64,000 nucleotides of DNA from an uncultured Gammaproteobacteria bacterium (GTDB taxonomy: Bacteria > Patescibacteriota > Microgenomatia > UBA10105 > UBA927): the NCBI GenBank assembly GCA_964349125.1, contig CAYGFH010000001.1, forward strand, positions 562,107 through 626,106, read 5' to 3'. How positions within the stretch are numbered: the first letter of the stretch is position 1; the number at the start of each line of letters is the position of its first letter. The notes below the pieces were generated by a model, which was not told the origin of the DNA, made no database searches, and saw only the letters and a list, made by a program, of their open reading frames with translations. This document shows positions 36,857 through 63,490 of the stretch, piece by piece. A program made the translations under genes and the position numbers.

Positions 36857-37855
36857 ATGTACTATAGATGTATGACCATCGTTGTCGGACTGTTCTATGG
36901 ATTCCTCGCCTACCTCTTCATCCGAGTTGTCCTCACAGGGTTTTATGTCGTCGAGCAAAACGAACGCGCGGTGAAAACGGTGTTTGGCAAAGCCCAAAAA
37001 ATCAAAGGCAAAACCACACTCGATATTCCTGATTTTGCCGATTCACTGAGGAAAGATGAGCAGGAGCGCTACCAATTCCCGCAACTCAAAGTCATCCCCC
37101 CGGGTGGTTTGTATTTTAAAATGCCGTGGGAAGAAATCCGGAAAGTCTCCATCGCCACACAACTTATTGATATCGGGTTTGATCCGCAGGATCCCTCTGT
37201 CAACGAAAACAATACATCTCTGGCCGCCGTCACCAAAGACCAGCTCAATATCAAACTTCGCGGCCAACTGCAGTATACGGTGTCCGAGCAAAATCTCTAT
37301 GCATTTTTCTTTGGGGTCACCTCCCCCATTGCTCATGTCATGGGATATTTTATTTCCATTTTGCGCGAGCGCATCGCCAATTTTGAAGCACCCGTGAAAC
37401 ACGGTCCCAAAGATTCCCTCCAAGCATCACTTGGCACATCTATCAATGATTTGCGCAAAAACTTAGGAGAATTCAACAGCCATATGGCAGCGGAGTGTCA
37501 TTCCTCAGCTGCCCGCTACGGCATCACCCTGGATGCGGCACTGATCACCGCGCTTGAGCCACCAAATGATGTAGAGTCAGCGCTTGCCGCCATCAACACC
37601 GCACACAATCACGTGTCCTCACAGATCAGTCTTGCGCAGGCAAGCGCCGATCAAAAGATCGTCCAGTCAAAGACGTCCGTGGAAATTGAAACACTCAAGG
37701 CAAAATCGGAAGTACAGGTACTAAACGAAATGGCGTCCCAACTACTGCTCATCAAACAGAGCGGCAAAAAGACGCTTCCTGCATATTTGCGAAACGTCAG
37801 GCTGTCACTCTTATCTCAGGCAAAGAGGATATTTTTGGAGACCAAACATGAATAA
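36857..37855 (+). CDS. SPFH/band-7 protein (HflK-like)
   Basis: N-terminal TM followed by an SPFH domain. It sits directly after hflX, as hflK does in the hflX-hflK-hflC operon. Confidence 0.55.
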   Translation: MYYRCMTIVVGLFYGFLAYLFIRVVLTGFYVVEQNERAVKTVFGKAQKIKGKTTLDIPDFADSLRKDEQERYQFPQLKVIPPGGLYFKMPWEEIRKVSIATQLIDIGFDPQDPSVNENNTSLAAVTKDQLNIKLRGQLQYTVSEQNLYAFFFGVTSPIAHVMGYFISILRERIANFEAPVKHGPKDSLQASLGTSINDLRKNLGEFNSHMAAECHSSAARYGITLDAALITALEPPNDVESALAAINTAHNHVSSQISLAQASADQKIVQSKTSVEIETLKAKSEVQVLNEMASQLLLIKQSGKKTLPAYLRNVRLSLLSQAKRIFLETKHE

Positions 37856-38756
37856 CGCGCTACTCATACCATTTTTTGCGATAGGATTTCTGGTAGCAGA
37901 GTCCATAGTCCTTGGCATTGCCAGATTGTTTGGCGTGTACACCACGGTGCAGGAACGCGAGGCAAAAGTATTTGTGCTGTTCGGCGAAGTGTTGGGGGTA
38001 CTCGATACACCCGGACTCCATAGCCCCCTTGTAGAGTTCGGGTGGAAGGCACTCATCGTAAACATATTCGGAGAGACACATGTGAGAAGTTTGAGTCTCG
38101 ATCAGGAATATATCAGAAGCATTCCGGTGAATTCCGAAGAAGGCACGCCCATGGGAATCGGTGTCTGGTATGAGATGTTTATCTCCGATCCAGTCGCCCA
38201 TATTTTCAAAAACGTGGATCCCGAAGGGTCGCTGACTGCCAATGTGAAAAACGCGACGATCAAGAGTTTAAGTAACCTTCCCTTGGCCCAAATGCTTGCC
38301 AATCGCCACCAGATGTCTGGAGCGGTTCGAAGTGAAGTATCGGCACAGTCCTCTGAATGGGGGTACAAACTGGGGTCTGTTTACATCCGCAAAGTGCACT
38401 TCAGAGACGAAAATATGACCCAGCAGATAGAGGAAAAAGTAGTCAACCAACTGCGTCAGGTCACCTCCGCTATCGAGCAGGACGGACTTAACCAGGTCAA
38501 CGTCATCGCAAGCAAAGCAGAGCAGGAAGCATCCATCGAGCTTGCCAAAGCTGCGGCAGTGAGACCCAAAATCGTAGGAAAATCTCTGGAGGAAATTTCC
38601 AAGGACCCCGAGGTTCTCGACACCATGTTTCAGATATTGGAACAGCAAAAAATTACGGGTGGCAATACGGAGCTCACATTATTGCCTCAGGGCACTCCGA
38701 CAGAATTACTGACGCCGCTTCTGGCTTCCGAAAAAACATCAGGAAATAAAAAGTAG
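37848..38756 (+). CDS. SPFH/band-7 protein (HflC-like)
   Basis: N-terminal TM followed by an SPFH domain. Overlaps the preceding gene by 8 nt. Confidence 0.55.
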   Translation: MNNALLIPFFAIGFLVAESIVLGIARLFGVYTTVQEREAKVFVLFGEVLGVLDTPGLHSPLVEFGWKALIVNIFGETHVRSLSLDQEYIRSIPVNSEEGTPMGIGVWYEMFISDPVAHIFKNVDPEGSLTANVKNATIKSLSNLPLAQMLANRHQMSGAVRSEVSAQSSEWGYKLGSVYIRKVHFRDENMTQQIEEKVVNQLRQVTSAIEQDGLNQVNVIASKAEQEASIELAKAAAVRPKIVGKSLEEISKDPEVLDTMFQILEQQKITGGNTELTLLPQGTPTELLTPLLASEKTSGNKK

Positions 38757-38767
38757 CCTATCTTCAA

Positions 38768-38843
38768 TGTCATTGCGACGTGTCCCGCGAAGCCTTAGCG
38801 TAGTGGGAAGCCTTGGCGAAATGGGAAGTTGCACAGCAATCTC
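38768..38843 (+). repeat. REP/MITE-like intergenic element, copy A (TGTCATTGCGA...CAGCAATCTC), followed by AACCATGAAC and a heptamer tract
   Basis: Seen directly. Starts 12 nt after the stop of the hflC-like gene. Confidence 0.55.
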
Positions 38844-38866
38844 GTCCCTCACTTTCAACCATGAAC

Positions 38867-38908
38867 GGTTAACGGTTAACGATTCGCGGTTCGCGATTTA
38901 TGATTTAT
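38867..38908. repeat. Heptanucleotide tandem tract (CGGTTAA CGGTTAA CGATTCG CGGTTCG CGATTTA TGATTTA)
   Basis: Six 7-nt units with consensus CGRTTWA. The tract ends at the stop codon of the convergent ABC-F gene. Confidence 0.6.
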
Positions 38909-40359
38909 TTTTCCAAATCCAGCGTCTGATGGATTTTAATTTTTTCCACAAACTCGGGAATATGGGATACCAGCACGAGTGCTCCCTCATATGCGCTGAT
39001 GGCTTCGGCGATCACCGGCAAATGTCGGAAATTTATGTGGTTCGTTGGCTCATCCATGATCAGCAGTCCCGGTTCCATCAGCACGAGCCTGGCAAACGAT
39101 AAGAGTCCCTTTTGTCCTTCAGAGAGGCTTTTAATCTTGGCGGTTATCAGTTCCCCGGTGAGCAAAAATCCTGCAGCAGTGGCTCGCAGTTTCTGTTCGT
39201 TCAGCTGACAGTCAGATAGCTGCACCGCTTTGACGAGCGATTCCCACACGGTATCATTGTAGTCCAGTGTGCGGAAATCCTGACTGTAGTACCCTACTCT
39301 CACGCCGGGCGTGATCACCACTCCATCTGCTTTTCCGTTTGCGATGGCATCAATGAGTGTGCTTTTCCCGATCCCATTTGGCCCTTCGATCAACAGATGC
39401 TTCCCCCGAGTGAGTAGGACATGCGCGGGCTTTGTTACGACTTCATGGTTTTTCATGATAGACACACTGTCTATCCGTATCGCATCGCTTCCCAAATTTT
39501 TCTGTACGGGGATGGTGAATTTCCGTATCGTTTTATCTTCCCGTCGTATGTCGACTTTTTCGTCCTCAAGTTTTTCAATTTTCTCTCGCATTTTTTGGGC
39601 GACGTTTCGCATCTTACCGCCTTTATTGGCAAAGAAGTTGGCCTTCTCTTTATTGTCTGCGATCATCCGTTCCCGCTGCGCATTCTCTCGCTGCTGCTGT
39701 TCTATGCGGGTCTGGATTTCTTCCACCACATCCAGATAATTTCCCTGGTACTGTTCTATCTTTTTGGTAAAGCTGTCGAGGTACAGCACTCCTTGGGTAA
39801 ATGCATTTAAAAAGTCCGCATCATGAGAAATCACAATCACACTCTTGGGATACATCATCAGAAAATACATGAGGTGATCTATCCCCGCCCGATCCAGATT
39901 ATTGGTCGGCTCATCGAGAAGGAGTAAGTCGGGATCTTGTATCAGGGCCGATGCCAAAAGGAGCCTCGCCTTTTGTCCACCGGAGAATGATTTGATGTGT
40001 TTGTCAGCGGGCGCATGCAGGTTAACTGCATCCAGTACCCCTGCCATTCTTCTCTTCACATCATAACTTTCCGTATTGCAGCGCTTGGTGAAAAATTCCT
40101 CGATAGTCAGGTCGTACTCTTCAGGATCTATCACCTGGTGTGCTGTTGCCACGGTCAGCGATTTGTCGACACTGATTCTGCCGGATGTGGGAGTCAGTGC
40201 CCCCGTAAGCAGCTTGAACAGTGTGCTTTTTCCCGCACCGTTTTGTCCCATGAGTGCGACTTTCATTTCTTCTCGCACGGAAAAGCTCGCCTCATCGAGG
40301 ATCTGTTTTCCGTCACCATACTGGTAACTTACTTCATCAAAACGGATTATTGTTTTCAT
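38905..40359 (-). CDS. ABC-F family ATPase (two tandem ABC domains, no TMD; EttA/Uup-like)
   Basis: Two Walker A motifs (GQNGAGKST and GPNGIGKST) and two LSGGQK/LSEGQK signatures with an inter-domain linker. Confidence 0.85.
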   Translation of the reverse strand: MKTIIRFDEVSYQYGDGKQILDEASFSVREEMKVALMGQNGAGKSTLFKLLTGALTPTSGRISVDKSLTVATAHQVIDPEEYDLTIEEFFTKRCNTESYDVKRRMAGVLDAVNLHAPADKHIKSFSGGQKARLLLASALIQDPDLLLLDEPTNNLDRAGIDHLMYFLMMYPKSVIVISHDADFLNAFTQGVLYLDSFTKKIEQYQGNYLDVVEEIQTRIEQQQRENAQRERMIADNKEKANFFANKGGKMRNVAQKMREKIEKLEDEKVDIRREDKTIRKFTIPVQKNLGSDAIRIDSVSIMKNHEVVTKPAHVLLTRGKHLLIEGPNGIGKSTLIDAIANGKADGVVITPGVRVGYYSQDFRTLDYNDTVWESLVKAVQLSDCQLNEQKLRATAAGFLLTGELITAKIKSLSEGQKGLLSFARLVLMEPGLLIMDEPTNHINFRHLPVIAEAISAYEGALVLVSHIPEFVEKIKIHQTLDLEK

Positions 40360-40459
40360 ACTGATTTCTTTGTTTTGGATCTGTAAATCGAAACACCCAA
40401 AGCGTAGATATACACGCCAAGCTGAAGTATCGAAGATATCGCAAAACGAAGTAACAGTA

Positions 40460-41098
40460 TTATATCATGCGAAGCGTTGACAGTATTTCAGTATCGTTTT
40501 GTATGTAATACCTGATTTCCAGGTTCTCCGGATCAAGCAGGCTGTACAACGCGCGGATATCACGGTCAGTATGCCTCACGCACCCGGAACTGCCTGGAGT
40601 ATCCGCTCCAAGTTTGGACACATCCCCATTCACACCATGAAGTCCGAATGCCCCTGGAAGCACCCAGTCGCACCCTCCACCACATTCAGGGTACGGCACG
40701 GGTCCATACGGAGACCCCTCAGACACGGGCACGTCCAGCTCCAAAAAATACGGTGCCGTCTCGGGATTATCTGTTGGGTATTTCGCGGTGATGAACCAAT
40801 ATGGCCTTCCAACTAATTGCGGCACAGGAGTAGGACGCTCGTTTGGTATGCCTGTTTTTACCCGAAAAAACGCAATTGGCATACTGGCATGGGAAACTCC
40901 GGGTTGACCGAAATACAGTACCTCCACCTGCAACTCTCGTGAGAGGGAGAACCAAAATCCATATGCTGTTATCATTTGGTCAATTGCCCGCACTGCATGC
41001 ACGCGAGGGAGTGTCACGTACACACACAGCGAAAAAACCGATAGAATGGTCCCAATCTGATAAAATACCTGTATGATGAGACGTGCAGTTCTGTTCAT
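40460..41098 (-). CDS. L,D-transpeptidase (YkuD-family)
   Basis: Catalytic motif HG...SSGCVRHTDRDIRALY. Start placed at MNRTARL... (signal anchor), which puts it 26 nt past the start of the divergent gene. Confidence 0.55.
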   Translation of the reverse strand: MNRTARLIIQVFYQIGTILSVFSLCVYVTLPRVHAVRAIDQMITAYGFWFSLSRELQVEVLYFGQPGVSHASMPIAFFRVKTGIPNERPTPVPQLVGRPYWFITAKYPTDNPETAPYFLELDVPVSEGSPYGPVPYPECGGGCDWVLPGAFGLHGVNGDVSKLGADTPGSSGCVRHTDRDIRALYSLLDPENLEIRYYIQNDTEILSTLRMI

Positions 41099-42164
41099 CG
41101 TGTTGGGTATTGTATCAATACTTGCGTGGCGGTGGTACCACCCACCGTTTGTCCCCGTTGTCACGGGTATCCCCACCCGACCGACTCCTACTGTCACACC
41201 CACACCATCTCCGACTCCGAAGCCTATTCCCGCATCGTTTCTGATACCGGGTGGCACGCATGTATTTCAGACATTTAACAACTGCGGTCCCGCCGCGTTA
41301 TCGATGGCACTATTCTATGTCGGTATAAACAAAAACCAAACTGAACTGGGGCTCGAGCTTCGTCCGTATCAGGTGCCTGGAGGAGACAACGATGACAAGT
41401 CCGTGACACTTAAAGAACTGGGAGATAAAGCCATAGCATTAGGGCTCGTTTCCTATCACCGTCCGGGCGGCACCACCCAGTTGGTGAAACGGTTTATCGT
41501 AGCAGGCATTCCGGTGATCACCAGAACGAGACTGAAGAAGGAAGATGACATAGGACACTTCAGAATTATCAAAGGGTACGATGATGCCTCGGGCGAATTT
41601 ATACAGGATGATTCTCTGCAAGGGAAAAACCTCCGGTATTCGTACGCCGATTTTTCTGCACTCTGGCAGACCTTCGGGTATGAGTATCTTATTATTTCCC
41701 GCCCGGAAAAAATCGCAGAAATTCTTGCCATATTGGGCGATCAGGCGGATGAAACGGTCGCATGGAGGCACGCAGCAGATCAGGCAAGAAATGTGCTCAA
41801 AACTAACCCATCAGATATGTATACAGGCCTAAATCTCTCCGTTGCTTTGTATCATATTGGGGATTTCTCCGGGTCTGTAGCAGAATTTGAGAAAGTGGAA
41901 TCCCGACTTCCCTTTCGCACGCTCTGGTACCAAATCGAGCCGATGTTATCGTACTATGAACTGAAACATGACGCCCGCGTGTTTGACATTACAGACAGGA
42001 TTCTCAGCAATCAGAATCGCGCGTATTCTGAACTCTACCTACTTCGTGGGCGCGTCTACCAAAGACAGGGAAACACAGAAAAAGCCCGCGAAGAATTTGC
42101 AAAAGCGGTACTCTATAATACGTCACTGGGAGAAGCCCGTGAGGCGCTAAGTTCTCTACGCTAG
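41073..42164 (+). CDS. Peptidase C39-like domain protein with C-terminal TPR repeats
   Basis: NNCGPAALSMAL (catalytic-Cys context of the C39-like fold) and a TPR-like C-terminus. Confidence 0.5.
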   Translation: MMRRAVLFIVLGIVSILAWRWYHPPFVPVVTGIPTRPTPTVTPTPSPTPKPIPASFLIPGGTHVFQTFNNCGPAALSMALFYVGINKNQTELGLELRPYQVPGGDNDDKSVTLKELGDKAIALGLVSYHRPGGTTQLVKRFIVAGIPVITRTRLKKEDDIGHFRIIKGYDDASGEFIQDDSLQGKNLRYSYADFSALWQTFGYEYLIISRPEKIAEILAILGDQADETVAWRHAADQARNVLKTNPSDMYTGLNLSVALYHIGDFSGSVAEFEKVESRLPFRTLWYQIEPMLSYYELKHDARVFDITDRILSNQNRAYSELYLLRGRVYQRQGNTEKAREEFAKAVLYNTSLGEAREALSSLR

Positions 42165-42363
42165 CGCTTGGGATGCAGTACTGTTCTTGATGTTCCCCCT
42201 CGCCATTTCCCACATATCCCGCATCTTCCAATTGATCCAACAGTCGCGCTGCCCGGGAATATCCTATCTGCAATTTCTCCTGAAGGACACTAGTCGGTAT
42301 TGTATCCAAATGTTCCAACAGTCTCACCGCGTCATCAAATACACTGTCTTGTACATCCTTCAT
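42004..42363 (-). CDS. Stand-alone FtsK-gamma (KOPS-binding winged-helix) domain protein
   Basis: SVFDDAVRLL...LQEKLQIGYSRAARLLDQLEDAGYVG matches the FtsK gamma consensus (D.AV.....S.LQR.L.IGY.RAAR..D.ME..G.VG). Confidence 0.45.
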   Translation of the reverse strand: MKDVQDSVFDDAVRLLEHLDTIPTSVLQEKLQIGYSRAARLLDQLEDAGYVGNGEGEHQEQYCIPSASVENLAPHGLLPVTYYRVPLLQILRGLFLCFPVFGRRAHEVGRVQNTRDSDC

Positions 42364-42415
42364 ATCTCCAGTATACACTGGTGTATTTTAATCAGGTGCA
42401 TAGTACACTATATCT

Positions 42416-43267
42416 ATGAACCGACCTGAACAATCAAACAATGTATATAAAATGCTTTCGATCGCATTACTCTGTCTTTTTGCAGGACTTGGGATTGGCT
42501 ACTATATAGCCAAAAATCCGGTGAGAGTTTTTGAACCGCAGGGATGTACAATGGAAGCAAAAATCTGTCCTGACGGATCCGCTGTCGGACGCACTGGTCC
42601 GAAGTGCGAGTTTAGCCCCTGCCCACCTGAGACGAGAAAACAACCACAGGGTGACACAAACACGACAACAAATTCGGGCAGGTTTAGCAAACGATTGTTT
42701 GATCCCAATGGAACAATCATAGAGACTGCACCATTCCCCAAGGAAATGACGAAAATATCAGATAGCGCACTGGTTGGATTACAGTGCTCAGGGTTTTACT
42801 ACAATTACGGGAATGGGGGGTTTTTGATGGAAACAGAATCAGGATCAAAAGAGATGACGGATGCCCTACTACTTGATGTGGCCAGTAAACATCCGACGAT
42901 ATCTGCCCTATCCTCATGTAGGACAGAAACAGGCGGCACCATAGTACACTATGAGATTGAAGCAGGAGCTGCAGGTGCTGGGAACACCTCTTCCTTTTTT
43001 ACTCTGGAGACAGATGGCAGTCTCAAAAAGATTTCAAGTATATCCAATGACGGTGCACCGTATTTCATTTGCAGCAGACCGTACATGCTGACAGATAAAA
43101 ATATAGTGTATTGGGGGTGCGGCGGCGGAGACGGCGGATTCGGCCAATCATCCGTCTATGCGATCGACTTGAATACATCTTCAACCAGAAGAGTTATCAA
43201 GTGTACATCCACCGCAGACAGCGAGTCAGCCGATCCCGGCGGACCAAGTACAGTGAAGTGTGAATAG
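42416..43267 (+). CDS. Hypothetical secreted protein
   Basis: N-terminal signal anchor. No known domain. Confidence 0.35.
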   Translation: MNRPEQSNNVYKMLSIALLCLFAGLGIGYYIAKNPVRVFEPQGCTMEAKICPDGSAVGRTGPKCEFSPCPPETRKQPQGDTNTTTNSGRFSKRLFDPNGTIIETAPFPKEMTKISDSALVGLQCSGFYYNYGNGGFLMETESGSKEMTDALLLDVASKHPTISALSSCRTETGGTIVHYEIEAGAAGAGNTSSFFTLETDGSLKKISSISNDGAPYFICSRPYMLTDKNIVYWGCGGGDGGFGQSSVYAIDLNTSSTRRVIKCTSTADSESADPGGPSTVKCE

Positions 43268-43281
43268 ATCTTTCATTCATT

Positions 43282-43345
43282 TGTCATTGCGAGCGAAGCG
43301 CGGCAATCTCGCTTTTCTTGTTTGTCATTCAAACCATCAACCATA
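43282..43345 (+). repeat. REP/MITE-like intergenic element, copy B (TGTCATTGCGAGCGAAGCGCGGCAATCTCGCTTTTCTT...)
   Basis: Starts 15 nt after a stop codon. GCGAG/CTCGC stem followed by a T-run. Confidence 0.55.
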
Positions 43346-43372
43346 AAATAGAAACTATCCGGCTATGCTTTG

Positions 43373-44266
43373 TTATTTCGCCTTAGGCTTCTGTAGCTCA
43401 AGCGGCTCCATAGTTAAAATTCGGGAGTGTACAGGATCAGGAGCATTGGGTTTTATAAGGAACGGTAACGATAGTATCAATATATTTATGAGAGTAAATT
43501 CAGATACCACAGCGTACATTCGATTGAGAATCAATAGTCCCCAAGCAAGCATAATCATAAATAGCACTTTTGCAGGAGTGGTGTTTTCTTCGGTAAAATT
43601 CTTTATAACACACCCCATATACTCACGTATTTCCTCCAAACGCTCGGGCATTGTCTGACGTTTGCTTGGTATGGGAATGATAAACAACAGTCCCAGAATA
43701 GGAAGTCCAATGGAAGCAAACATCATACCGGACATAATAATCTGCAACACTGGCACGCGAACAAGCACATCAAACGATGGGAATATTTTTGTAAACTGAT
43801 CCAGCTGTATAAAAAACAGCATCAGATATATCAGATCATTCCAAAAGTACAATACAATTTGTTTTGTGTAGTCCAGCTCTCTTCTCTCAAAAATACTATG
43901 GATCACGATTGCGGTGGGGATAACTGATATGCAAATCAAAGGAGGAACAAACCGAGCAGGAATCAAAAACAGTATGGCATACCAGAGGATAATAGAATGT
44001 ACAGCAACGATATGTTCATTTACTTTCGGTATAAGCGCATTTCTAAATGAAAAAAAGGTCAGACTGATACAAATAAAAAAATATTTAATTAAGTGATCAT
44101 GTATATCATAGTGCGTCTCATTTTTATCAGGCAGAAGCCCGAGAAAGAAGGAGAATAGGATAACAAAAACAAAATTCCGTACAGCAGTCAGATTCTGTAA
44201 TTTTGGAGCAACATGCAAAAAGATGCCGAGACTAAACCAGAAGGTAACTATATAGGCAGGATCCAT
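43373..44266 (-). CDS. Hypothetical polytopic membrane protein
   Basis: About 8 predicted TM helices. Confidence 0.35.
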   Translation of the reverse strand: MDPAYIVTFWFSLGIFLHVAPKLQNLTAVRNFVFVILFSFFLGLLPDKNETHYDIHDHLIKYFFICISLTFFSFRNALIPKVNEHIVAVHSIILWYAILFLIPARFVPPLICISVIPTAIVIHSIFERRELDYTKQIVLYFWNDLIYLMLFFIQLDQFTKIFPSFDVLVRVPVLQIIMSGMMFASIGLPILGLLFIIPIPSKRQTMPERLEEIREYMGCVIKNFTEENTTPAKVLFMIMLAWGLLILNRMYAVVSEFTLINILILSLPFLIKPNAPDPVHSRILTMEPLELQKPKAK

Positions 44267-44334
44267 AAAACTATCGTACTCTTTTTGTATAAAAATCTGT
44301 AGACTGGCTTTTCCGCGTTTGCTACATTGTATAT

Positions 44335-44466
44335 ATGAAACGAAAATCTTCCATAAAGCCGAAGAGTAAGAAAACCTCCCGTCCCCTTCTTATCGGCATC
44401 ACTTCAGCAGCTCTTGCTCTACTTGCCACAGTCGCAGGCTTCCTTAAAGGCACGAAGTGTAAATAA
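44335..44466 (+). pseudogene. Internally deleted paralog remnant of the thermonuclease gene at 52601..53272 (43 codons)
   Basis: MKRKSSIKPKSKKTSRPLLIGITSAALALLATVAGFLKGTKCK* matches the N-terminus (RPLLIGITAAALALLTSVA) and C-terminus (GFVKGTKCK*) of the full-length nuclease. Confidence 0.45.
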
Positions 44467-44479
44467 ATTTACATCTAGC

Positions 44480-45460
44480 TTATTTTCCCAACAAAAGTGT
44501 GATCAGGCCAATAATTGTATCTTTTTTTGATGGGGCACTTTCTGCAATCAGAAGCGTTAATACAGTGAGTGCATCTGGAGAAAGTTTTTTAGAATCAAGG
44601 CGTTTTGCCCGATTTAAAAACCACACAAAGGCAAACGCACCAGAGCGTTTATTCCCATCAATAAACGGATGATTCTTTACGATAAAATACAGCAGGTGTG
44701 CTGCTTTTTCTTCAATACTTGGATACACATCTTCATCATTAAATGATTGGAGGATATTTCCAACGATTCCTTCAATTGCCTGCTTTGTTCTTTCTACAGC
44801 AAACAAGTCACTCGCCTCGCCTTTTCGAATCAATTCTTTCTTTAGAAGCTCAATACTACCAAGTAAATCGCCAGAAGTTACAGCTAGAGTTTTTTTAGTA
44901 ACTCCAACTCCAGTAAATACACCTCTGTCGTATGCATCCAAAGAAAACCAGGTGTGTGCAAATTCTTTTATTAGATCTATTACTTTCTTTGAATCTATCT
45001 CTGTGGAACCAGGCAGCAATGTCTGTATCTCAGTAACTGATTTCATAAACGCATCGTAATTCTTCGCGATTCGTTTTCGATTGATCGTATATCCATTGGT
45101 AATATGATCACGCAACGTTTTGGTTGCCCAAATACGAAATTGTGTTGCCCTTTTGGAATTTACTCTATATCCGACAGATATAATCATATCTAGGTTATAG
45201 TGATTCATCTCACGCTCAACATTTCTTGCTCCTTCTTTTTGAACTATCCGGAAATTCCGGAGAGTTGACCGTTCTTTAAGCTCAGAATCTGAATAAATGT
45301 TGAGTATATGCTCACTCACAGTCCTTATGTCGATATCAAATGCAGAAGCGATTTGCGCCTGTGTTGCCCAAATGGTTTCATGTGTGACATCTCCTCGGAG
45401 TTCTATTGCCCCGTTTTTCGCCTGATAAATAATTGGCTGCTGAACCACTTTCTGTTTCAT
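44480..45460 (-). CDS. RhuM-family protein with C-terminal Fic/Doc domain
   Basis: RhuM-type N-terminus (IIYQAKNGAIELRGD...ETIWATQAQIA) and the Fic/Doc core motif HPFIDGNKRSG. Confidence 0.7.
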   Translation of the reverse strand: MKQKVVQQPIIYQAKNGAIELRGDVTHETIWATQAQIASAFDIDIRTVSEHILNIYSDSELKERSTLRNFRIVQKEGARNVEREMNHYNLDMIISVGYRVNSKRATQFRIWATKTLRDHITNGYTINRKRIAKNYDAFMKSVTEIQTLLPGSTEIDSKKVIDLIKEFAHTWFSLDAYDRGVFTGVGVTKKTLAVTSGDLLGSIELLKKELIRKGEASDLFAVERTKQAIEGIVGNILQSFNDEDVYPSIEEKAAHLLYFIVKNHPFIDGNKRSGAFAFVWFLNRAKRLDSKKLSPDALTVLTLLIAESAPSKKDTIIGLITLLLGK

Positions 45461-45561
45461 ACAAAATTAGTATATCACCACTTTTTATAATACATTTCAT
45501 CGCGACGAATCTTGAGCTTATCAAAGGGATGACACTAAAAGCATATAGAATATATATTTAA

Positions 45562-46710
45562 TTATTTTCTTTCAGAAAATATATTGAGATATTCTTTATA
45601 GAGATAAGATTGACCATACGTTATATCAGTATCTTTTGGAGAAAGAATATTCATCTCAATAAATCGATTAATCACCTCTTGAGAACCAGGTCTGCTAAAG
45701 CCAGTCCATTGTTGAATAACTGCCACATTTATAATTGGCTGCGCAAAGAGTTTAGGCATAACGAGCATCGCTGATTCCGCAGCACGTTTGCCTAAATTCT
45801 GAATCTTCATCATATCCTGCTCGCGGAGTTTTGTAATCTTGTCTACCGTAATAATAGCTTCATTAGCAATTTCTATAACACCATCAAGGAAAAAATCTAT
45901 CCACGAAACAACATTACCATTGTGATAACTAGTTAATTTTTCATAATAGACTTCTTGATGTCTTTTAAAATATGAAGAAAGGAAAAGAACAGGGCTTTCT
46001 AGAAAATGCTCATGCCACAGGAAAAAGGTAATAAGCATTCTGCCGGTTCTTCCATTTCCATCTAGGAAAGGATGAATAGTTTCAAATTGAGCATGCAATA
46101 TACCTGCTTTAATTACAGTAAGTAAGTCATCATTCGCATAAAAATATTTCTCCAATTCATCAAGCGCTTGTTTCATTTCTTCTACAGGTGGTGGAACATA
46201 TCTAGCGTTATCTGGTCTTGTACCACCTATCCAATTTTGGGTTTTTCTAAACTCACCAGGATCTGCGAAATGTGTAGCTCTGGCTTTACTCATAAGTTCC
46301 TTATGTAATTCCCTCAAAAAACGGAGTGAGAATGGAAAATTTTCCTTCTTCGCCCTGTCCATACCGTATCGAAGTGCAGTAATATAATGGAGAATATCAT
46401 CCACATCAGCAGGGACATTTGTGTTTGTTTTTACTTCCGCTTCGATAGCGTCAATCATAGTGGCCATGGTACCTTCAATCTGGCTTGAAGCGGCGGCATC
46501 TTTTCGCAAATACATCAGGAGAAAGAAATCCAAATCTGGAAGTAATTTAGTAATTCCATCAAGCTTGCCGACGAGTCTTGTAGCCTCACTGGCTTTTTTA
46601 ATAGTTGTGCCGTCAAAGATAAATCCACCTTCGGGAGGAAACTGAGCAGGAATAAATGCTTTAAAACCTTGAGGTTGTTTTCGCAAAATTCCGATCGTAT
46701 TGGCGTCCAT
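45562..46710 (-). CDS. Fic-family protein (adenylyltransferase-like)
   Basis: Canonical Fic motif HPFLDGNGRTGR. Confidence 0.85.
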   Translation of the reverse strand: MDANTIGILRKQPQGFKAFIPAQFPPEGGFIFDGTTIKKASEATRLVGKLDGITKLLPDLDFFLLMYLRKDAAASSQIEGTMATMIDAIEAEVKTNTNVPADVDDILHYITALRYGMDRAKKENFPFSLRFLRELHKELMSKARATHFADPGEFRKTQNWIGGTRPDNARYVPPPVEEMKQALDELEKYFYANDDLLTVIKAGILHAQFETIHPFLDGNGRTGRMLITFFLWHEHFLESPVLFLSSYFKRHQEVYYEKLTSYHNGNVVSWIDFFLDGVIEIANEAIITVDKITKLREQDMMKIQNLGKRAAESAMLVMPKLFAQPIINVAVIQQWTGFSRPGSQEVINRFIEMNILSPKDTDITYGQSYLYKEYLNIFSERK

Positions 46711-46872
46711 ACTTTGTTACTATCTTTTTAGAGATGTAAACAAACTATACTACTTAGTTTACATCTTGTCAAGTGATGTAAACAAACTTATACGTGGATT
46801 TAAGCCATTAATACACGGTTTCTCTACATAATATCTTCTGTCGATTCACGATTAGCGGTTACCCCTTTTCCC

Positions 46873-47508
46873 TTATAAATTCTCTCCACACGTATTCTCA
46901 CACTGAAACACCTGCTCGGGATCATTAGGAAATTTCTTTTCGCATGCCTGCACACAGGTTTTACACGCAGTAAATTGTGTGTCTTCAATTTGTTTGCATG
47001 ATCCATTCACTACACCGCACGTTGCAAATTGCCGACACCGGTCTCCAAGTTGATACATCTCCGTGCACATCTGGGCGGGATTGCTTCCGCAGACGATGTC
47101 CAGCCCATGGCAATTTTCTATTCCACAGGTTGAAGTTATTACAGGAGGTTTCGTATCGGGATTATTTAGTCCCGTGCATCTATAATTTATTTCCGCCGTT
47201 CTTGTTTCTTCTTTCACCACACATGCCGGGTTGCATCCCTCATGTCTGCTGTTTAGATTTGCACTAAACCACCAGGTTTTAGAGTATTCATTATATGTTC
47301 CAGACCCAAGTGCTTCCCCACCTTTTATACAGGAGTTTTCCGCTATGTTTCGAGCTTCCTTTTCCGTCAACAGTGCATTTGCTGTATTCGTTGGTTTTTT
47401 GGAAAAGAGCACATCATACTTAGACAGCACAAACATGCCGATAGCGAAGACAATTCCAAGTGCCACACAAAACGCAAGAACAGTTTGAAGTATTTTACTC
47501 ATATTCAC
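46873..47508 (-). CDS. Hypothetical Cys-rich secreted protein
   Basis: Signal anchor followed by about 20 Cys in the mature part. Confidence 0.35.
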   Translation of the reverse strand: MNMSKILQTVLAFCVALGIVFAIGMFVLSKYDVLFSKKPTNTANALLTEKEARNIAENSCIKGGEALGSGTYNEYSKTWWFSANLNSRHEGCNPACVVKEETRTAEINYRCTGLNNPDTKPPVITSTCGIENCHGLDIVCGSNPAQMCTEMYQLGDRCRQFATCGVVNGSCKQIEDTQFTACKTCVQACEKKFPNDPEQVFQCENTCGENL

Positions 47509-47525
47509 ATCTTATCAGGATTCAT

Positions 47526-48077
47526 TTATTTAGGAAGCGAACTCTTAACGCATGCGCTGACAATTCGTTCAACGATTGGTTCGGATTGTGTTGGCTCAGC
47601 CCAAAGAGTCGGCTCTGTAAATGCGATGGAAAAAGCCTCAAAATCTATACTTTTTCCAATTAGCTCTTTTTGTAATTGTGCTTTCATTTGATCAAATTTT
47701 GAGTCAAGTATATTACCTGCAACTGTGATCTCGTTATCGAAATTTATGCTTATAGCACCACGAATGGATGCATGGGATATATCTACTGCTGGAGTTGTGT
47801 TATCAAAATATGCTGAAATAAACATATCTTTCCATTCCATTTCCCAAAATACTGAATTATCAGAGTATCTACTGAAATTGATAGCAACCGTATTACCTTC
47901 AAAATCAGAAAATTCCTGTCTGCCTGTCCAAGATATACTGTCATCCATACCAAAAGTTTCTTGCACACGCCTGGTAAACGTAACTCCTTCTAATCGTTTA
48001 TTCCATTTAACTATATCTTCTGGTCGCATGGACCTTTCATGTTCATTCATAACATTGCTTGCATTATTATACTGCAA
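47526..48077 (-). CDS. Hypothetical protein
   Basis: ORF only. Confidence 0.3.
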   Translation of the reverse strand: MQYNNASNVMNEHERSMRPEDIVKWNKRLEGVTFTRRVQETFGMDDSISWTGRQEFSDFEGNTVAINFSRYSDNSVFWEMEWKDMFISAYFDNTTPAVDISHASIRGAISINFDNEITVAGNILDSKFDQMKAQLQKELIGKSIDFEAFSIAFTEPTLWAEPTQSEPIVERIVSACVKSSLPK

Positions 48078-48171
48078 TATGAAATTTCATAAAATGAATT
48101 GGAGCAGCAGATTTTATGAATCCTCAACTTCACCATTCATAATTCAAATATAGTAGTATCATACCTACTAC

Positions 48172-48684
48172 ATGCCACACCAGATATTTCATGAATCGGT
48201 CGTATATCTATATGTCCTTACGCTCAGCATTATTCTGACTGTTGCGTATATACAAGGGTTGCTCACCTCATTTCTACAAGCAGGATTATCCATCATATCT
48301 TGTGCATTTGATCTCATTTTTGGAAAAATATTTTTAGGTTGGGTATCACGCACCCGCGACGCAATAGCCTTTCGCATCACGGATCCCGTAAATTCGTTTA
48401 TAGACAGAATACCCAGAGGCTTCAAAGCCATGTTTTTTACACTGTTAGGATACAGCATATTTGTGTTGGATCATCTGTATAACACGACACTATTTGCAGA
48501 AGATGAAACAACATTTTATGACATTGTTATATACGGTCACAAATACTGGATAACAGATTATGCTCTCATGATTGGTGGAGTATTTCTTTCTTATGGACTC
48601 CTGTATTTTTTTATTCTTATCTCAGAAGTCATTCTTTATTTCGTCGACCGACGCATTAAAATTTTCGTCGTAGTACGGAGGTAA
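48172..48684 (+). CDS. Hypothetical membrane protein
   Basis: Four predicted TM helices. Confidence 0.3.
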   Translation: MPHQIFHESVVYLYVLTLSIILTVAYIQGLLTSFLQAGLSIISCAFDLIFGKIFLGWVSRTRDAIAFRITDPVNSFIDRIPRGFKAMFFTLLGYSIFVLDHLYNTTLFAEDETTFYDIVIYGHKYWITDYALMIGGVFLSYGLLYFFILISEVILYFVDRRIKIFVVVRR

Positions 48685-48779
48685 CCCCGGTTAACAACAG
48701 TAACGCACTTGAAAGTGCAGATAATACACCTCTCTTGTTCATTTGCTCTTTTACACCCCAAGTCTTATAGTATCAGTAT

Positions 48780-49930
48780 ATGCCACGGGATATCGTAAAA
48801 GAAGCACAACGTATAGAGCTCCATACCAATTCTTCAGATGATGCGCGTGATAGTATGTTCGACGATGCGGTGCAACTTGTTGCAAAACACGACATGGCTT
48901 CAGCATCTCTGCTTCAACGCAACCTTTCATTCGGGTACGCCAGGGCAGCCAGAGTACTCGATCAACTCGAAGAAGCAGGTGTCATTGGTCCTGCCGAAGG
49001 GTCCAAACCTCGTGAAGTCCTTATTTCTTCGTATGAAGACTATATAAATAGATCATTTAAAAAGCCAAACGTTGCCCTTGATGAAACAGATCCTGATTGG
49101 AACTCCTACAAATCTCCGAATTGGAAATCGCATGTAACACACTCATCATCAATTCTGCTGTTTGACGCAATTTCCAAAAACAGTGGTACTTCCCCGTTAT
49201 CGTTTCCAATCGGCTGGGAAAAAGAATCACTGAAAATCACGACTCTGTTAGAGACACCGCACTGTATTATCACGGGAAGCCCGCACAGCAGAAAATTGGA
49301 ATTTTTGGATACCATGCTTTTGTCACTTATAGCAGTAGCGTCTCCAATAAATTTGCGCATAGTGCTACTCGACGGCGCTCATTATTTGTCGCCATATACC
49401 GGCATTCCTCATCTGCTCACGCCGGTTACAGCTGAACCGGATAAAGCACTCGCAGCACTTCGGTGGGGAGAAATGGAAATGGAGCGCAGATGGAACGAAT
49501 TTTCAAAAGCAAACTGCAGGGATATTGCCTCATATAACAAAGCGTCATCAAATCCCATGAGTCATATAGTGTATGGCATCACCCAGATAGAGTATGTATG
49601 TCCTATGCAACAAATGAATTCATAGAGGGTCTTAAACATCTGACGTCGTTGGGATCCCGCGCCGGAATTCATATGGTGCTGGTATCAGATTCATTAGCAT
49701 CCCGTACTATTGCCAAAGAGATTAGAGAAAATATTCCAAATGTCATCTCGTTTAAGTCGACATGGGATGGAAGTTCAAAGCCAAAAGACTCCGAAGGTCT
49801 CGCACCAAACGAATTACTGTATAAAAATGATGCGGATAACACAGTAACGACACTGGATGCTCCATTGTTAGAAGAATCCGAAGTTCTAGGAATTCTTACG
49901 GAAATAAAAAAGAGCAACAATCATCCTTAG
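48780..49930 (+). pseudogene. Degenerate FtsK/SpoIIIE-like ATPase with an N-terminal gamma domain, split by a frameshift (48780..49625 frame 0; 49598..49930 frame 2)
   Basis: Gamma domain [10 protein letters not shown]...[27 protein letters not shown] at the N-terminus. Motor-domain blocks [24 protein letters not shown] and, in the second frame, AGIHMVLVSDSLASRTI...IPNVISF. The Walker A is degenerate (ITGSPHSRK rather than GTTGSGKS) and the Walker B is LLDG. Confidence 0.6.
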
Positions 49931-50379
49931 AAATTCTCTATCACAAGTTTTTTCATTTCCATCATATTGGCAAATGCATTCGGGCGCTTCATCAGTTCCC
50001 CCATATTCTCCGGGACTATTTGCCAACTTAACCCGTATTTGTCTTTGCACCATCCGCACTGTTCGGATTCCTTGACGCTTGAAAGCTTACTCCAATAATA
50101 ATCAATTTCTTCCTGATCTTTACATGGGACGGCAAAAGATACAGATTCATTAAACGTAAATTCAGGTCCGGCATTGATTGCCATAAATTTGTTGCCAGAA
50201 AGTTCAAATTCTACTGTCAATACTTTTCCGGCCAAGTCTTTTTGAAAATCAGCCAGTCCCTCACTGGGATAATATTCTGTGGACAATATTTTACTGTCAG
50301 GAAATACAGATACATAAAAGTCTACAGCTTCCTTCGCATTCCCATTGAACCATAAATTTGGAGTGATCGTTTTTTTCAT
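49927..50379 (-). CDS. VOC-family protein, PhnB-like
   Basis: MKKTITPNLWFNGNAKEAVDFY N-terminus typical of the PhnB/3-demethylubiquinone-9 methyltransferase-like glyoxalase fold. Confidence 0.55.
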   Translation of the reverse strand: MKKTITPNLWFNGNAKEAVDFYVSVFPDSKILSTEYYPSEGLADFQKDLAGKVLTVEFELSGNKFMAINAGPEFTFNESVSFAVPCKDQEEIDYYWSKLSSVKESEQCGWCKDKYGLSWQIVPENMGELMKRPNAFANMMEMKKLVIENF

Positions 50380-50421
50380 ATGATTTATTGTAACATACCA
50401 CACATAACGCACTCGCACAGT

Positions 50422-50462
50422 TGTCATTGCGAGTCCCGATGCACTTCGGGACGCGGCAATCT
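50422..50462 (+). repeat. REP/MITE-like intergenic element, copy C, with perfect inner hairpin GTCCCG-ATGCACTT-CGGGAC
   Basis: TGTCATTGCGA [hairpin] GCGGCAATCT, followed by AACCATGAAC and a heptamer tract. Confidence 0.6.
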
Positions 50463-50498
50463 ACTCACTGACTACGAACCACCAACCATGAACTAACA

Positions 50499-50540
50499 CG
50501 CTTTGCGGTTAACGATTAACGATTAACGATTTGCGATTAC
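50499..50540. repeat. Heptanucleotide tandem tract (CGCTTTG CGGTTAA CGATTAA CGATTAA CGATTTG CGATTAC)
   Basis: Six 7-nt units. It overlaps the stop codon of the DUF2207 gene. Confidence 0.6.
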
Positions 50541-52417
50541 CACTTTCCACCTCCCCCTCCTCCGCCTCCCCCTCCGGAGTAACCACCCCTGCGTCCACCG
50601 GATGAATGAGATGAAAATCCACTGGAAAATCCTCTAGTCGAAGACGTGCGAGTCGGTGTGTAATACGTATTTGAGTTCGACGGGCTATGTGTAAAAGTTT
50701 TAGAGACAGCGTGATGAAACCGAGTGAACACAAAGCCTTGCGTCTGATCATAAGAGGTATACCAACTTGGAACCTTTAACTCCAGCTCTTTAAAACGCGC
50801 TAACCAAATTTTTTCCACTCCAAACGCTATAGCATATGGCAGTAATTTTTCAAACATAAACTGCTTTTCAGACATAAACTCAAATTGCCTATCCTGGCTT
50901 TTCAAAAATTGCTTCAGCGCGATAATCATATTCTTTGTTACCACTCCATATTCAGTTTTTTTTGGCTTCGCATTTTGAATCGTAAGTATGACCACCAATA
51001 GAGGGATATTCACTGTAAGGAATGCCAAAAATGATAAGAATGATTTTGAACTTCGCGATGCATCTATGGGCTTTTCATATATCTTTTCATCTATGCACAT
51101 AGCATGGATCATGTCGTATATGTTCTCTAATTTGTCTGCTATTTCAAGTTCATCAACGTTAACCATCTTAAAATTTATCGTAGAAATTGCTTTATCCAAA
51201 TGATCCAAGTTAAGCTCTGATGATTTTCCGTCAAACACAGTTTTACCATTAATTTCTATCGTTGTATTGCTTTGTGAATCTTCAGTATTTATATACGAAG
51301 GGGTGAATATTACGTTCAATAATTTTTCTTCAAACGGCAGAAGACCTGGATCTTTCATGTTGGTATTCTCTCTGTTGAGTTTTTCAAAATAAAATTCACC
51401 TTTTTTCTTTTCAAAAATTTTTAGATATCCCCTGCGGGCTAAATCGACGATGGTCGCCGTTATTTCCGGCATGCCTGCACTACCATTCAGTATTGTTCCG
51501 CATACTGCGGGTGGATATTCACGTTTTGAGAGTGCTGATTTTGGCACCGAGAATGAAGCACTTGCAATACCCATCGGTACTTTCGGATCTTTACCAAACA
51601 ATTTCCATTTGATGACATACAAAAACGGAAAAACTATAAACCAAAAAACGATCAACACCTGGATCCACTCAGGAATTTGAAGCATTTCTGCACTGCTATC
51701 ACTCAAGGATGCGCGAGGGGTGGCGACTGAAATCGGCATCGGATCTACAACCGAAACTATCTGCTTTGGGAAGCCGGCAAGGATGGTGAATCCTTCTTTC
51801 GGGTTCAAAGTGCGACGAAGTGAAAATTTGTATACACCGGCATAATAACTACTTACACACGCAGCTTCGTTTGATCCTAATATTCCCGTGAAACAATCAA
51901 ACTTCACGTTTTGAGCAGGAATTTTTTCAGGCAATATCACATTGACCACAGAAGAGGTTATGCCATCTTCCCAAGCGTTACCGGTTACGTTCCAATAAAA
52001 TTCGTCATGATCAGAAAAATACGTGATACCCCCTTTTAATTGATAAGAAATTTTGAAGAACTGAGGACCTTTGAGAAATATATTCGGATCACCGATTTTT
52101 ATGCTTATGACACCGGAGGTGTTTGATGTTGAGAATCTGTATGGAACTCCTTTATCGTTCACTACTGTAATATCAGTGATACTCAGTTGAAATTTCTGAT
52201 TGTTCGAATTAGTTTTGACTGTCGGAATATCTCGAAGTATGCCATGCACCGGACTACTACCCAAGTCGTAGAAAATTTTTTCGGTAATTTTTGCCGAGCC
52301 GTCTTTGTGTAACACTATATCCGCATTAAATTCTTTGATCTGGCTTGCAAAAACTGTCTGAGGCACGACAATTGCAAAAAGTATTATCGTTAAGAGTCTC
52401 CAAAGAAACATACGCAT
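50537..52417 (-). CDS. DUF2207-family membrane protein with C-terminal Gly-rich tail
   Basis: Signal peptide, large extracellular domain, TM helices and the characteristic ...SGGRRGGYSGGGGGGGGGGKW terminus. Confidence 0.6.
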   Translation of the reverse strand: MRMFLWRLLTIILFAIVVPQTVFASQIKEFNADIVLHKDGSAKITEKIFYDLGSSPVHGILRDIPTVKTNSNNQKFQLSITDITVVNDKGVPYRFSTSNTSGVISIKIGDPNIFLKGPQFFKISYQLKGGITYFSDHDEFYWNVTGNAWEDGITSSVVNVILPEKIPAQNVKFDCFTGILGSNEAACVSSYYAGVYKFSLRRTLNPKEGFTILAGFPKQIVSVVDPMPISVATPRASLSDSSAEMLQIPEWIQVLIVFWFIVFPFLYVIKWKLFGKDPKVPMGIASASFSVPKSALSKREYPPAVCGTILNGSAGMPEITATIVDLARRGYLKIFEKKKGEFYFEKLNRENTNMKDPGLLPFEEKLLNVIFTPSYINTEDSQSNTTIEINGKTVFDGKSSELNLDHLDKAISTINFKMVNVDELEIADKLENIYDMIHAMCIDEKIYEKPIDASRSSKSFLSFLAFLTVNIPLLVVILTIQNAKPKKTEYGVVTKNMIIALKQFLKSQDRQFEFMSEKQFMFEKLLPYAIAFGVEKIWLARFKELELKVPSWYTSYDQTQGFVFTRFHHAVSKTFTHSPSNSNTYYTPTRTSSTRGFSSGFSSHSSGGRRGGYSGGGGGGGGGGKW

Positions 52418-52514
52418 ACTTCAATTATAGTATCGCTGATCACAAACACCAGATCCTATTTCGAGATTGCGTATGACTACTCTAATCAATCACTCGCATT
52501 CCATCTTTTATAAA

Positions 52515-52577
52515 CGATTTACGCTTTACGATTTACGATTTACGATTAACGTGTAACGGATAGCGATTAACGATATT
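52515..52577. repeat. Heptanucleotide tandem tract (nine 7-nt units, CGATTTA type) in the divergent promoter region between the DUF2207 and nuclease genes
   Basis: Seen directly: CGATTTA CGCTTTA CGATTTA CGATTTA CGATTAA CGTGTAA CGGATAG CGATTAA CGATATT. Confidence 0.6.
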
Positions 52578-52600
52578 CGCTATGGTGCTATAGTAATACT

Positions 52601-53272
52601 ATGCCCACGAAAACTCCCAAGAAGTCGAAGAGCAAGATAGCCACTCGCCCACTTCTCATCGGTATTACAGCAGCGGCGCTTGCGCTTCTCACATCGGTCG
52701 CTTCGTTTAATCAACTGCGCGGAGAGAAGGTCATAGAGGTTATAGACGGAGACACGTATCGTATAGAAAACAGACAAATTGTGCGTCTCTACAGTATCGA
52801 TGCCCCTGATGTGGATGTATGCATGGGGCAAGAAGCGAAAGAGAAACTATCCTCTCTCATTCTCGGTAAACGTATCACACTCCAAAACATCCGCTCGGGC
52901 GGATTTAACAGAGTGATGGGGTATGCATACGTGGATGGCAAATCAGTGGAAACAGAGATGATGAAAGGCGGATATGCAGTACTCACTCGGGGTACCAAGG
53001 AACTACCGGAACTACTGGAATCTAGCACATATGCCAGACAGAAAAAACTCGGCGTGTTTAGTGATGCGTGTTATCAGATGGAAAATAAAGTAAATCCCAA
53101 ATGTAACGTAAAGGGTAATATCGGGGAGACAAAGCAGGACAGATATTATTTCACTCCCTCATGTCCCAACTATACACAGACAGTCGTCTGGACCAGTTTC
53201 GGCGACCGGTGGTTCTGCACAGAGAAAGATGCTGTTGAAGCGGGGTTTGTTAAAGGAACAAAGTGTAAATAA
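52601..53272 (+). CDS. Thermonuclease (staphylococcal nuclease, SNase-like) family protein with Cys-rich C-terminal extension
   Basis: Signal anchor, then SNase core motifs (VIDGDTYRI, YVDG) and a C-terminal CxxC-rich region. Confidence 0.65.
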   Translation: MPTKTPKKSKSKIATRPLLIGITAAALALLTSVASFNQLRGEKVIEVIDGDTYRIENRQIVRLYSIDAPDVDVCMGQEAKEKLSSLILGKRITLQNIRSGGFNRVMGYAYVDGKSVETEMMKGGYAVLTRGTKELPELLESSTYARQKKLGVFSDACYQMENKVNPKCNVKGNIGETKQDRYYFTPSCPNYTQTVVWTSFGDRWFCTEKDAVEAGFVKGTKCK

Positions 53273-61289: not shown

Positions 61290-61507
61290 CCAAATTATAC
61301 TCCCCTCACGCACAAATTACGATCAGATATGTTATGTATTACCGAAGTTAACGCTCGGCCCATCCGATGATTCAGAACCTCCCATCCTAGCCTCAAATCT
61401 AGCTGTATCACCCACTATTTCCTTGATTTTTATACGCTCGAGCGTGAGAAAATCAAGAGCGCTTCCGATTCACTGGTACGTACTCAACCACCTCGGAGGT
61501 GGAAAGG
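61290..61507. repeat. Copy 1 of a ~220-bp direct repeat immediately upstream of hsdR
   Basis: Near-identical to the copies at 62281-62519 and 63272-63490. Contains the 36-bp imperfect palindrome CTTGATTTTTATACGCTC|GAGCGTGAGAAAATCAAG (61422-61457), a CCACCTCGGAGGTGG palindrome, and a TATAAT on the minus strand pointing at hsdR. Confidence 0.8.
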
Positions 61508-61547
61508 TATGTAATTTTGTTTATGGTTTTTGAACATTAATGGGTAA

Positions 61548-62273: not shown

Positions 62274-62280
62274 ACTAAAA

Positions 62281-63254: not shown

Positions 63255-63271
63255 AATTACATTAATTTTCT

Positions 63272-63490
63272 CAAATTATACTCCCCTCACGCACAAATTA
63301 CGATCAGGTGTGATATTTTCACCGAAGTAAACGTTCGGCCCTTCCGATGAGTCAGAACCGCCCATCCTAGCCTCAAATCTAGCTGTATCACACACTATTT
63401 CCTTGATTTTTATACGCTCGAGCGTGAAAAAATCAAGAGCGCTGCGATTCACTGGTACGTACTCAACCACCTCGAAACCGAAAGATGTTT
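63272..63490. repeat. Copy 3 of the ~220-bp direct repeat
   Basis: About 90% identical to copy 1 by eye over its full length. Confidence 0.8.

Follow-up and report, generated by a model that had tools for sequence, protein, structure and literature searches.

The window analysed here, 64,000 nt of contig CAYGFH010000001.1 (assembly GCA_964349125.1, positions 562,107–626,106), belongs to a Microgenomates-like Patescibacteria metagenome-assembled genome (MAG) and contains four tandem arrays of a degenerate heptanucleotide of the CGRTTWA type. Three of these arrays, here designated A, C, and T3, had been described in an initial annotation made from the sequence alone, and all three are present at the places it gave; the fourth, mini tract M, is absent from that annotation. 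All four tracts are intergenic and touch coding sequence only at a stop codon. Tract A is located between the convergent Band7 and ABC-F genes, tract C between the start of a 3-dmu-9_3-mt family gene and the end of the DUF2207 gene, and T3 in the 183-nt intergenic region that separates the divergently oriented genes for DUF2207 and SNase, whereas M lies 10 nt from the stop codon (46873–46875) of a minus-strand open reading frame (ORF; 46873–47508). Tracts A and C each follow a copy of a repetitive extragenic palindromic (REP)-like element and an exact 11-nt box, and only two vestigial heptamers come after a third copy of the element (copy B) (Table 1). These tracts are interpreted, with a probability of roughly 0.6, as decayed heptanucleotide simple sequence repeats (SSRs) of the intergenic class known as 'long SSRs' or short tandemly repeated repetitive (STRR) sequences. 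What is new here is the presence of such repeats in a phylum for which no description of them was found; the class itself is already known.

Table 1. Heptanucleotide tracts, REP-like copies, associated boxes, and neighbouring genes (positions are those of the window).
Feature	Position	Strand	Description
Tract A	38866–38907	+	Six degenerate heptamers: CGGTTAA CGGTTAA CGATTCG CGGTTCG CGATTTA TGATTTA
Mini tract M	46842–46862	+	Three units: CGATTCA CGATTAG CGGTTAC
Tract C	50499–50540	+	Six heptamers: CGCTTTG CGGTTAA CGATTAA CGATTAA CGATTTG CGATTAC; perfect core CGATTAA x2
Tract T3	52515–52577 (52584 by CG phase)	+	About nine heptamers, CGATTTA type: CGATTTA CGCTTTA CGATTTA CGATTTA CGATTAA CGTGTAA CGGATAG CGATTAA CGATATT
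REP-like copy A	38768–38842	+	TGTCATTGCGA...GCAATCT, 57-nt insert; begins 12 nt past the Band7 stop
REP-like copy B	43282–43309	+	TGTCATTGCGA...GCAATCT, 10-nt insert; between convergent genes
REP-like copy C	50422–50462	+	TGTCATTGCGA...GCAATCT, 24-nt insert
Box copy 1, CAACCATGAAC	38856–38866	+	Heptamer register (CCATGAA); joins REP-like copy A to tract A
Box copy 2, CAACCATGAAC	50483–50493	+	Exact; joins REP-like copy C to tract C
Vestigial heptamers AACCATC AACCATA	43332–43345	+	After REP-like copy B; same register
Band7 gene	37848–38756	+	Pfam
ABC-F gene	38905–40359	-	Pfam
3-dmu-9_3-mt family gene	49927–50379	-	Pfam
DUF2207 gene	50537–52417	-	Pfam
SNase gene	52601–53272	+	Pfam

Period 7 was called at A, C, and T3 by Tandem Repeats Finder (TRF), and the pattern CGNTTNNCGNTTNNCGNTT, allowing at most one mismatch, yielded 16 matches, compared with 0.25 ± 0.5 in dinucleotide shuffles. 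All of these matches are on the plus strand, and 15 of the 16 are inside A, C, T3, and M. The proposal that the tracts are heptanucleotide tandem repeats of the slipped-strand type is supported. Their description as six to nine head-to-tail CGRTTWA units is correct as regards the presence of heptamer tandems but not their regularity: the arrays are degenerate, the exact period spans at most 16, 23, 23, and 12 nt in the four tracts, and no more than 3.3 perfect units remain in any of them. CG occupies unit positions 1–2 on the plus strand in A, C, and T3, and the best-kept unit positions within the window are CG and TT, the tract limits having been set by CG phase. In the source genome, the scan covered 80.7 kb of the 809-kb contig (ENA assembly ERZ27247837), i.e. 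the window together with flanks of 7.5 and 9.3 kb; the four tracts and the three REP-like copies all lie on the plus strand between 38.7 and 52.6 kb, and neither a tract nor a REP-like copy was found in the remaining 66 kb. With four CGRTTWA loci in 14 kb, the unit recurs at several loci, as in STRR-type families.

The positions of tracts A and C relative to the adjacent genes are exact. The TAA stop codons of ABC-F (38905–38907) and DUF2207 (50537–50539), two genes confirmed by Pfam, fall within the last units of tracts A and C, respectively, as the initial annotation had claimed, and are the first triplets of these arrays when read on the minus strand. Its further statement that the arrays end at convergent stop codons is true of tract A, flanked by Band7 on the plus strand and ABC-F on the minus strand, but not of tract C, whose left neighbour is on the minus strand like DUF2207. 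Its placement of the third tract between the divergent DUF2207 and thermonuclease (SNase) genes is accurate. TAA occurs on the minus strand in every unit and, in the variant CGATTAA, on the plus strand as well. As 7 is not divisible by 3, stops fall in every frame within three units, and a count along the minus strand of A, C, and T3 confirmed stops in each of the three frames. Such an array therefore cannot intrude on coding sequence, which explains why a tract can end exactly at a stop codon; that selection sets this limit is probable. Tract C begins at the native stop codon of DUF2207 and the gene is not truncated, since its C-terminus (...GGGKW*) corresponds to the conserved end (...GGGSW*) of three homologues. 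The homologues carry the names Gottesmanbacteria, Roizmanbacteria, Microgenomates, or Patescibacteria, and no orthologous intergenic region is available for comparison with the window, the nearest DUF2207 homologue being 41% identical. The source organism is accordingly placed in a Patescibacteria lineage that lacks near kin in the databases. A separate CCTCCNCC-type repeat at 50546–50575, to which TRF assigned periods of 9 and 15, encodes the glycine-rich C-terminal tail of DUF2207.

The same heptamers were found in many other genomes. A GTDB scan for (CGRTTWA)3, with one genome per species, returned tracts at at least 120 loci, and the following counts refer to the matches listed. They represent at least 12 phyla: Bacteroidota, Acidobacteriota, Chloroflexota, Verrucomicrobiota, Desulfobacterota, Armatimonadota, Cyanobacteria, Nitrospirota, Gammaproteobacteria, Planctomycetota, Firmicutes, and Patescibacteria (Daviesbacteria and Saccharibacteria). 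The longest arrays reach 22 perfect units, and 112 of 130 tracts do not fall within any ORF of 120 aa or more. An ORF stop codon is present within 10 nt of 42 of the 112 intergenic tracts (on one side in 22 cases and on the other in 20), and, where both neighbours could be assigned, the ratio of convergent to divergent gene pairs is 18 : 6, compared with a background of 62 : 71 (Fisher P = 0.014). The 856 kb surrounding the listed tracts also contain 69 other perfect tandems with period 7 and at least three copies, representing 48 different units, whereas each of the other periods from 4 to 12 accounts for only 3–11. Period 7 is also dominant in another patescibacterial genome (L286; GCA_040960375.1, JBFOMN010000045.1 6322–16253), where nine period-7 tracts occur in 21.8 kb, compared with at most one at any other lag from 4 to 12. 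The unit differs in each of these nine tracts, eight of which are intergenic, and two begin at the stop codon of the upstream gene.

At L286 the units are A/T-rich (including GTAATCN, CAATTTT, GAAAATT, and TTAAANN), and a (TTAANNN)3 run begins directly at the stop codon of a DUF2207 orthologue. In a Daviesbacteria genome (L048, 4176–4234), a (CGATTAA)n array occupies the entire 53-nt gap between two convergent ORFs, from stop to stop, which is also the arrangement of tract A. Inverted array pairs, (TAAATCG)n ... (CGATTTA)n, surround a short loop just 3' of genes at six loci of Acidobacteriota and Armatimonadota (L025, L028, L033, L041, L061, and L062). Such pairs would form long perfect hairpins, and they may be terminators made of heptamer arrays.

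In their known features, the tracts closely resemble long SSRs as described by Mrazek, Guo and Shah (2007) and summarized in PMC4679880 and PMC4692102. According to these summaries, heptamers are the most abundant class of long SSR, are over-represented in intergenic regions, and have been proposed to arise by slippage; the tracts in the window share with them the head-to-tail 7-nt unit, the intergenic position, an occurrence beyond chance, the dominance of period 7 over other periods in carrier genomes, and the proposed slippage origin. They differ in being short arrays that have decayed (3–10 units, at most 3.3 of them perfect), in the presence of one family at four nearby loci, and in that two copies sit inside a larger composite repeat. 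Under this interpretation, a 7-nt unit would have been amplified by slipped-strand mispairing during replication, as in established SSR biology, and the arrays have since decayed by point substitution, which has left two or three perfect units. Each array would be bounded by the end of a gene, the closest position being that at which the first TAA serves as the stop codon of the gene; this follows from the frame arithmetic, with selection as the presumed agent. The unit family would then have spread locally by copying of the composite intergenic repeat, which is seen for two copies, by some presumed copying mechanism. Any present function of the tracts would be incidental, such as a -35-like hexamer for the SNase gene and a weak terminator-like hairpin in tract A.

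Several observations weigh against this interpretation. The four tracts share one unit on one strand within 14 kb, with none in the other 66 kb, and generic slippage does not predict such clustering. The tracts at L286 each have a different unit, so the same-unit pattern here needs copying or sequence-specific selection. No convincing REP-like neighbour was found at T3 or M. Slippage is postulated for tracts that show a single length in three assemblies of one clone, and the literature offers no explanation for the preference for 7 nt.

In an alternative reading, the tracts would be clustered binding sites for a protein that recognizes a specific DNA or RNA sequence. One model for such a protein is the post-transcriptional regulator that has been proposed for TAACTGA repeats, and another is a ring-shaped RNA binder reading triplets spaced 7 nt apart, with the 3' untranslated regions of ABC-F and DUF2207 and the SNase/DUF2207 promoter region as targets; the iteron role raised by the initial annotation is the DNA-level version of this idea. 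The recurrence of one unit at four loci on one strand accords with it, as does the preferential retention of CG and TT in the window, within limits set by CG phase. The tracts are, moreover, unstructured as RNA (z of -0.3 to +1.1), which would leave them single-stranded and accessible, and the many-locus TAACTGA family has been interpreted in this manner (PMC4679880). The gene positions of the tracts are heterogeneous, however, being after stop codons in some cases and in a divergent promoter region in another, and the units flanking the perfect cores at the GTDB loci (at least 120) display no position-specific conservation, CG not being specially conserved, which fits neutral decay. In viral contigs, where loci with three perfect copies of a unit were counted, CGATTTA was found at 22 loci and CGATTAA at 4, compared with 2, 13, and 4 for composition-matched controls; these counts were judged to be within the control range, indicating that the unit is not specially enriched, whereas the published TAACTGA unit is strongly enriched (107 loci). 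The CGRTTWA unit is also not retained at the DUF2207 orthologue loci of other Patescibacteria. Iterons are direct repeats of approximately 17–22 bp arranged in phase with the helix. The units here are 7 bp long and contiguous, not approximately 20 bp long and helically spaced, and no Rep family or replication-initiator gene was present among the neighbouring genes examined (Band7, ABC-F, YkuD, Fic, FtsK-like, DUF2207, SNase, TIR, and type I restriction-modification genes), which represent part of the ORFs of the window. An iteron role is not supported, and a binding-site array in general appears improbable.

Copying is evident at tracts A and C. Order and orientation are the same in both: a REP-like copy comes first, the exact 11-mer CAACCATGAAC next, and the tract last. 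The 11-mer is found only at these two places within the 64 kb. The composite repeat has thus been copied locally within the window, and the combination of one unit family, one strand, and a shared REP-like element and 11-nt box points to copying rather than to four independent births. The chance probability of the observed co-occupancy (two of three REP-like sites and two of four tract sites) is approximately 0.04, given that the window has about 30 intergenic regions 60 nt or longer and without counting order, orientation, or box. The suggestion in the initial annotation that tracts and the REP-like element are linked as one composite is therefore borne out for A and C. The insert of REP-like copy A is longer than those of B and C because it contains an 18-nt tandem duplication (GAAGCCTTAGCGAAATGG, 2.2 copies, 38789–38828). 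No CGRTTWA tract is found beside copy B, and the neighbourhood of T3 yielded a single 9-mer match to the inverted REP end (P ~0.03).

These data raise the possibility that the tract forms a built-in part of a small intergenic element, mobile or prone to copying, that consists of the REP-like hairpin, the CAACCATGAAC box, and the heptamer array. This element would insert at the 3' ends of genes, its heptamers being recognized by a putative recombinase or transposase or made at insertion, with T3 and M as copies that have eroded. In addition to the features shared by A and C and their co-occupancy, the two vestigial units after REP-like copy B in the same register, the restriction to one strand and to 14 kb, and the position of the elements conform to this model: copies A and B begin 12–15 nt past the stop codon of a plus-strand gene, with the array extending up to the stop codon of the convergent gene. 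Two loci (L124 and L126) have heptamer arrays on either side of a REP-like element. Against it, the composite pattern gave only three matches in the JGI metagenome collection, two of them redundant, and REP-like termini occur at only 3 of 120 tract-bearing loci across phyla, where they are not adjacent to the tracts. Neither target-site duplications nor terminal inverted repeats were found around the whole REP–box–tract unit, no transposase or recombinase was present among the neighbouring genes checked, and no REP-associated tyrosine transposase (RAYT)-type transposase was seen in the approximately 10% of the contig that was read. Only copy C, with a folding energy of -21 kcal/mol (z of -3.3 to -3.8), folds significantly better than shuffled sequences, whereas copies A and B do not. 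This model is considered unlikely on balance, and its extension, in which the hairpin–box–array unit is a mobile 3'-end module that seeds one heptamer family at many loci of the genome, distinctly more doubtful still.

Enterobacterial REP sequences and bacterial interspersed mosaic elements (BIMEs) are short imperfect palindromes that occur in intergenic regions at the 3' ends of genes, often between convergent genes, and that sometimes form composite mosaics. The REP-like element resembles them in being a short intergenic element at gene 3' ends that is combined into a composite, but has no sequence similarity to them, forms a stable hairpin in only one of three copies, and has no RAYT-type transposase among the genes checked; heptamer arrays are not known to be part of BIMEs. 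Unrelated phyla also contain termini of the form GTCATTGCGAG...GCAATCT, with inserts that vary and are rich in GC, namely at L048 (~3400–3440, Daviesbacteria), at L093 (5299, together with a minus-strand copy, Chitinophagaceae), and at L124, L125, and L126. No description of this element was found in the searchable literature, in which searches with the termini matched only unrelated primers.

The position of T3 invites comparison with the phase-variable hmw1A and hmw2A genes of Haemophilus influenzae (Dawid 1999; Power 2009, PMC2651432), in which perfect, strain-variable heptanucleotide tracts of 13–38 units lie approximately 100 bp upstream of the genes in the promoter region and have been shown to modulate expression. 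By analogy, T3 could be a contingency locus at which gain or loss of 7-bp units alters the geometry of the divergent SNase/DUF2207 promoters. The right end of T3 supplies a -35-like hexamer (TTAACG, 52567–52572) located 16 nt before an extended -10-like site (TGcTATAGT, 52586–52594), which is followed by the SNase ATG at 52601; T3 thus reaches into a promoter-like site at its -35 position, within a divergent intergenic region, and the surrounding defence or accessory island is a setting in which switching is plausible. T3 differs, however, from the hmw tracts, the only resemblance to which concerns this tract: its approximately nine units are mostly imperfect, no more than 3.3 of them are perfect, and those closest to the promoter (CGTGTAA CGGATAG CGATTAA CGATATT) are the most degenerate. 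An extended -10 site also reduces dependence on the -35 element, and the -10-like box of DUF2207 is 85 nt from T3. The tracts are identical in assemblies ERZ27247837 and ERZ27247817 and in the Logan assembly ERR3094292, the contigs of which are 100% identical over 3–16 kb and represent one clone. The other three tracts are at or after stop codons, where a change in unit number in A, C, or M could alter the product by a few C-terminal residues at most. The phase-variation switch envisaged in the initial annotation is not supported by these results, and a contingency role for T3 is highly improbable.

When the intergenic regions were folded in full as RNA, for either strand, no significant structure emerged other than that of REP-like copy C. 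Within tract A, two mutated units give a 5-bp hairpin with a T-rich run after it, a combination flagged as weakly terminator-like; terminator-like sites in the region numbered 19, not significantly different from the 12.5 ± 4.2 found in shuffled sequences. Rfam 15 produced no match at gathering score in the window and only chance-level matches (E of at least 1, searched to E of 5) in 38600–53000, and ARAGORN detected no tRNA or tmRNA in the window. Integron attC sites, CtrA boxes (TTAA-N7-TTAA), FtsK orienting polar sequences (KOPS), and DnaA boxes were considered and dropped owing to misfits in spacing or consensus. A literature search with the tract sequences returned no papers.

The part of the window between ~43000 and 64000 has a low GC content (0.32–0.40, compared with 0.44–0.49 upstream) and has the appearance of an accessory or defence island. 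Present in it are genes for RhuM/Fic, Fic, FtsK-gamma/SpoIIIE-like, DUF2207, SNase, and 8xMP plus ThsB-like TIR proteins, a type I restriction-modification system that includes two HsdS genes, and genes with NERD domains. The three repeats of ~1 kb at 61291–63474 are tandem paralogous genes (241, 244, and 177 aa; one with a NERD domain) that share blocks of 145 and 45 nt (81–93% identity) and a 30-nt exact repeat. Many genes of the window are preceded by -10-like boxes, several of the extended TGnTAnnnT form, 6–8 nt before the ATG; such boxes were found at 52586–52601, on the minus strand at 52415–52429 and 50377–50395, and upstream of the starts at 41073, 42416, 44266 (minus strand), 45460 (minus strand), and 48780. 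No Shine-Dalgarno sequence is visible at the genes with these boxes, and the two features together suggest that leaderless mRNAs may be common in the source Patescibacteria genome.

The STRR families of cyanobacteria comprise on the order of a hundred loci. As described by Mazel et al. (1990), cited in PMC4692102, they resemble the tracts studied here in that one heptamer is present at many intergenic loci with no function assigned; they differ in unit sequence and phylum, no link to a hairpin element is described for them, and only four loci are visible here. The TAACTGA repeats of marine Beggiatoaceae, Cyanobacteria, and Bacteroidetes (MacGregor 2015, PMC4679880) are likewise A/T-rich units with stop triplets in 2–6 copies, are found at many intergenic loci per unit, and are distributed patchily among phyla with no evident transfer mechanism. 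Most sets of TAACTGA precede a start codon by a few nucleotides and are in forward orientation (PMC4679880), whereas three of the four tracts in the window are at or just after stop codons.

These results caution against reading degenerate heptanucleotide SSRs as phase-variation switches or iterons. Tracts of CGATTTA, CGGTTTA, and CGATTAA occur in at least 12 phyla among the matches listed, in genomes with a general excess of period 7, and the combination of a 7-nt period with TAA provides a simple account of arrays that stop exactly at stop codons. Within the window the heptamer array travels with a hairpin element, which, if true genome-wide, would hint at how same-unit families are dispersed. 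If the hairpin–box–array unit were indeed a mobile module, it would represent a dispersal mechanism for same-unit families such as STRR, TAACTGA, and CGRTTWA, for which the literature states none. The arrays might additionally act as all-frame stop and 3'-end elements in the leaderless, dense genomes of Patescibacteria.

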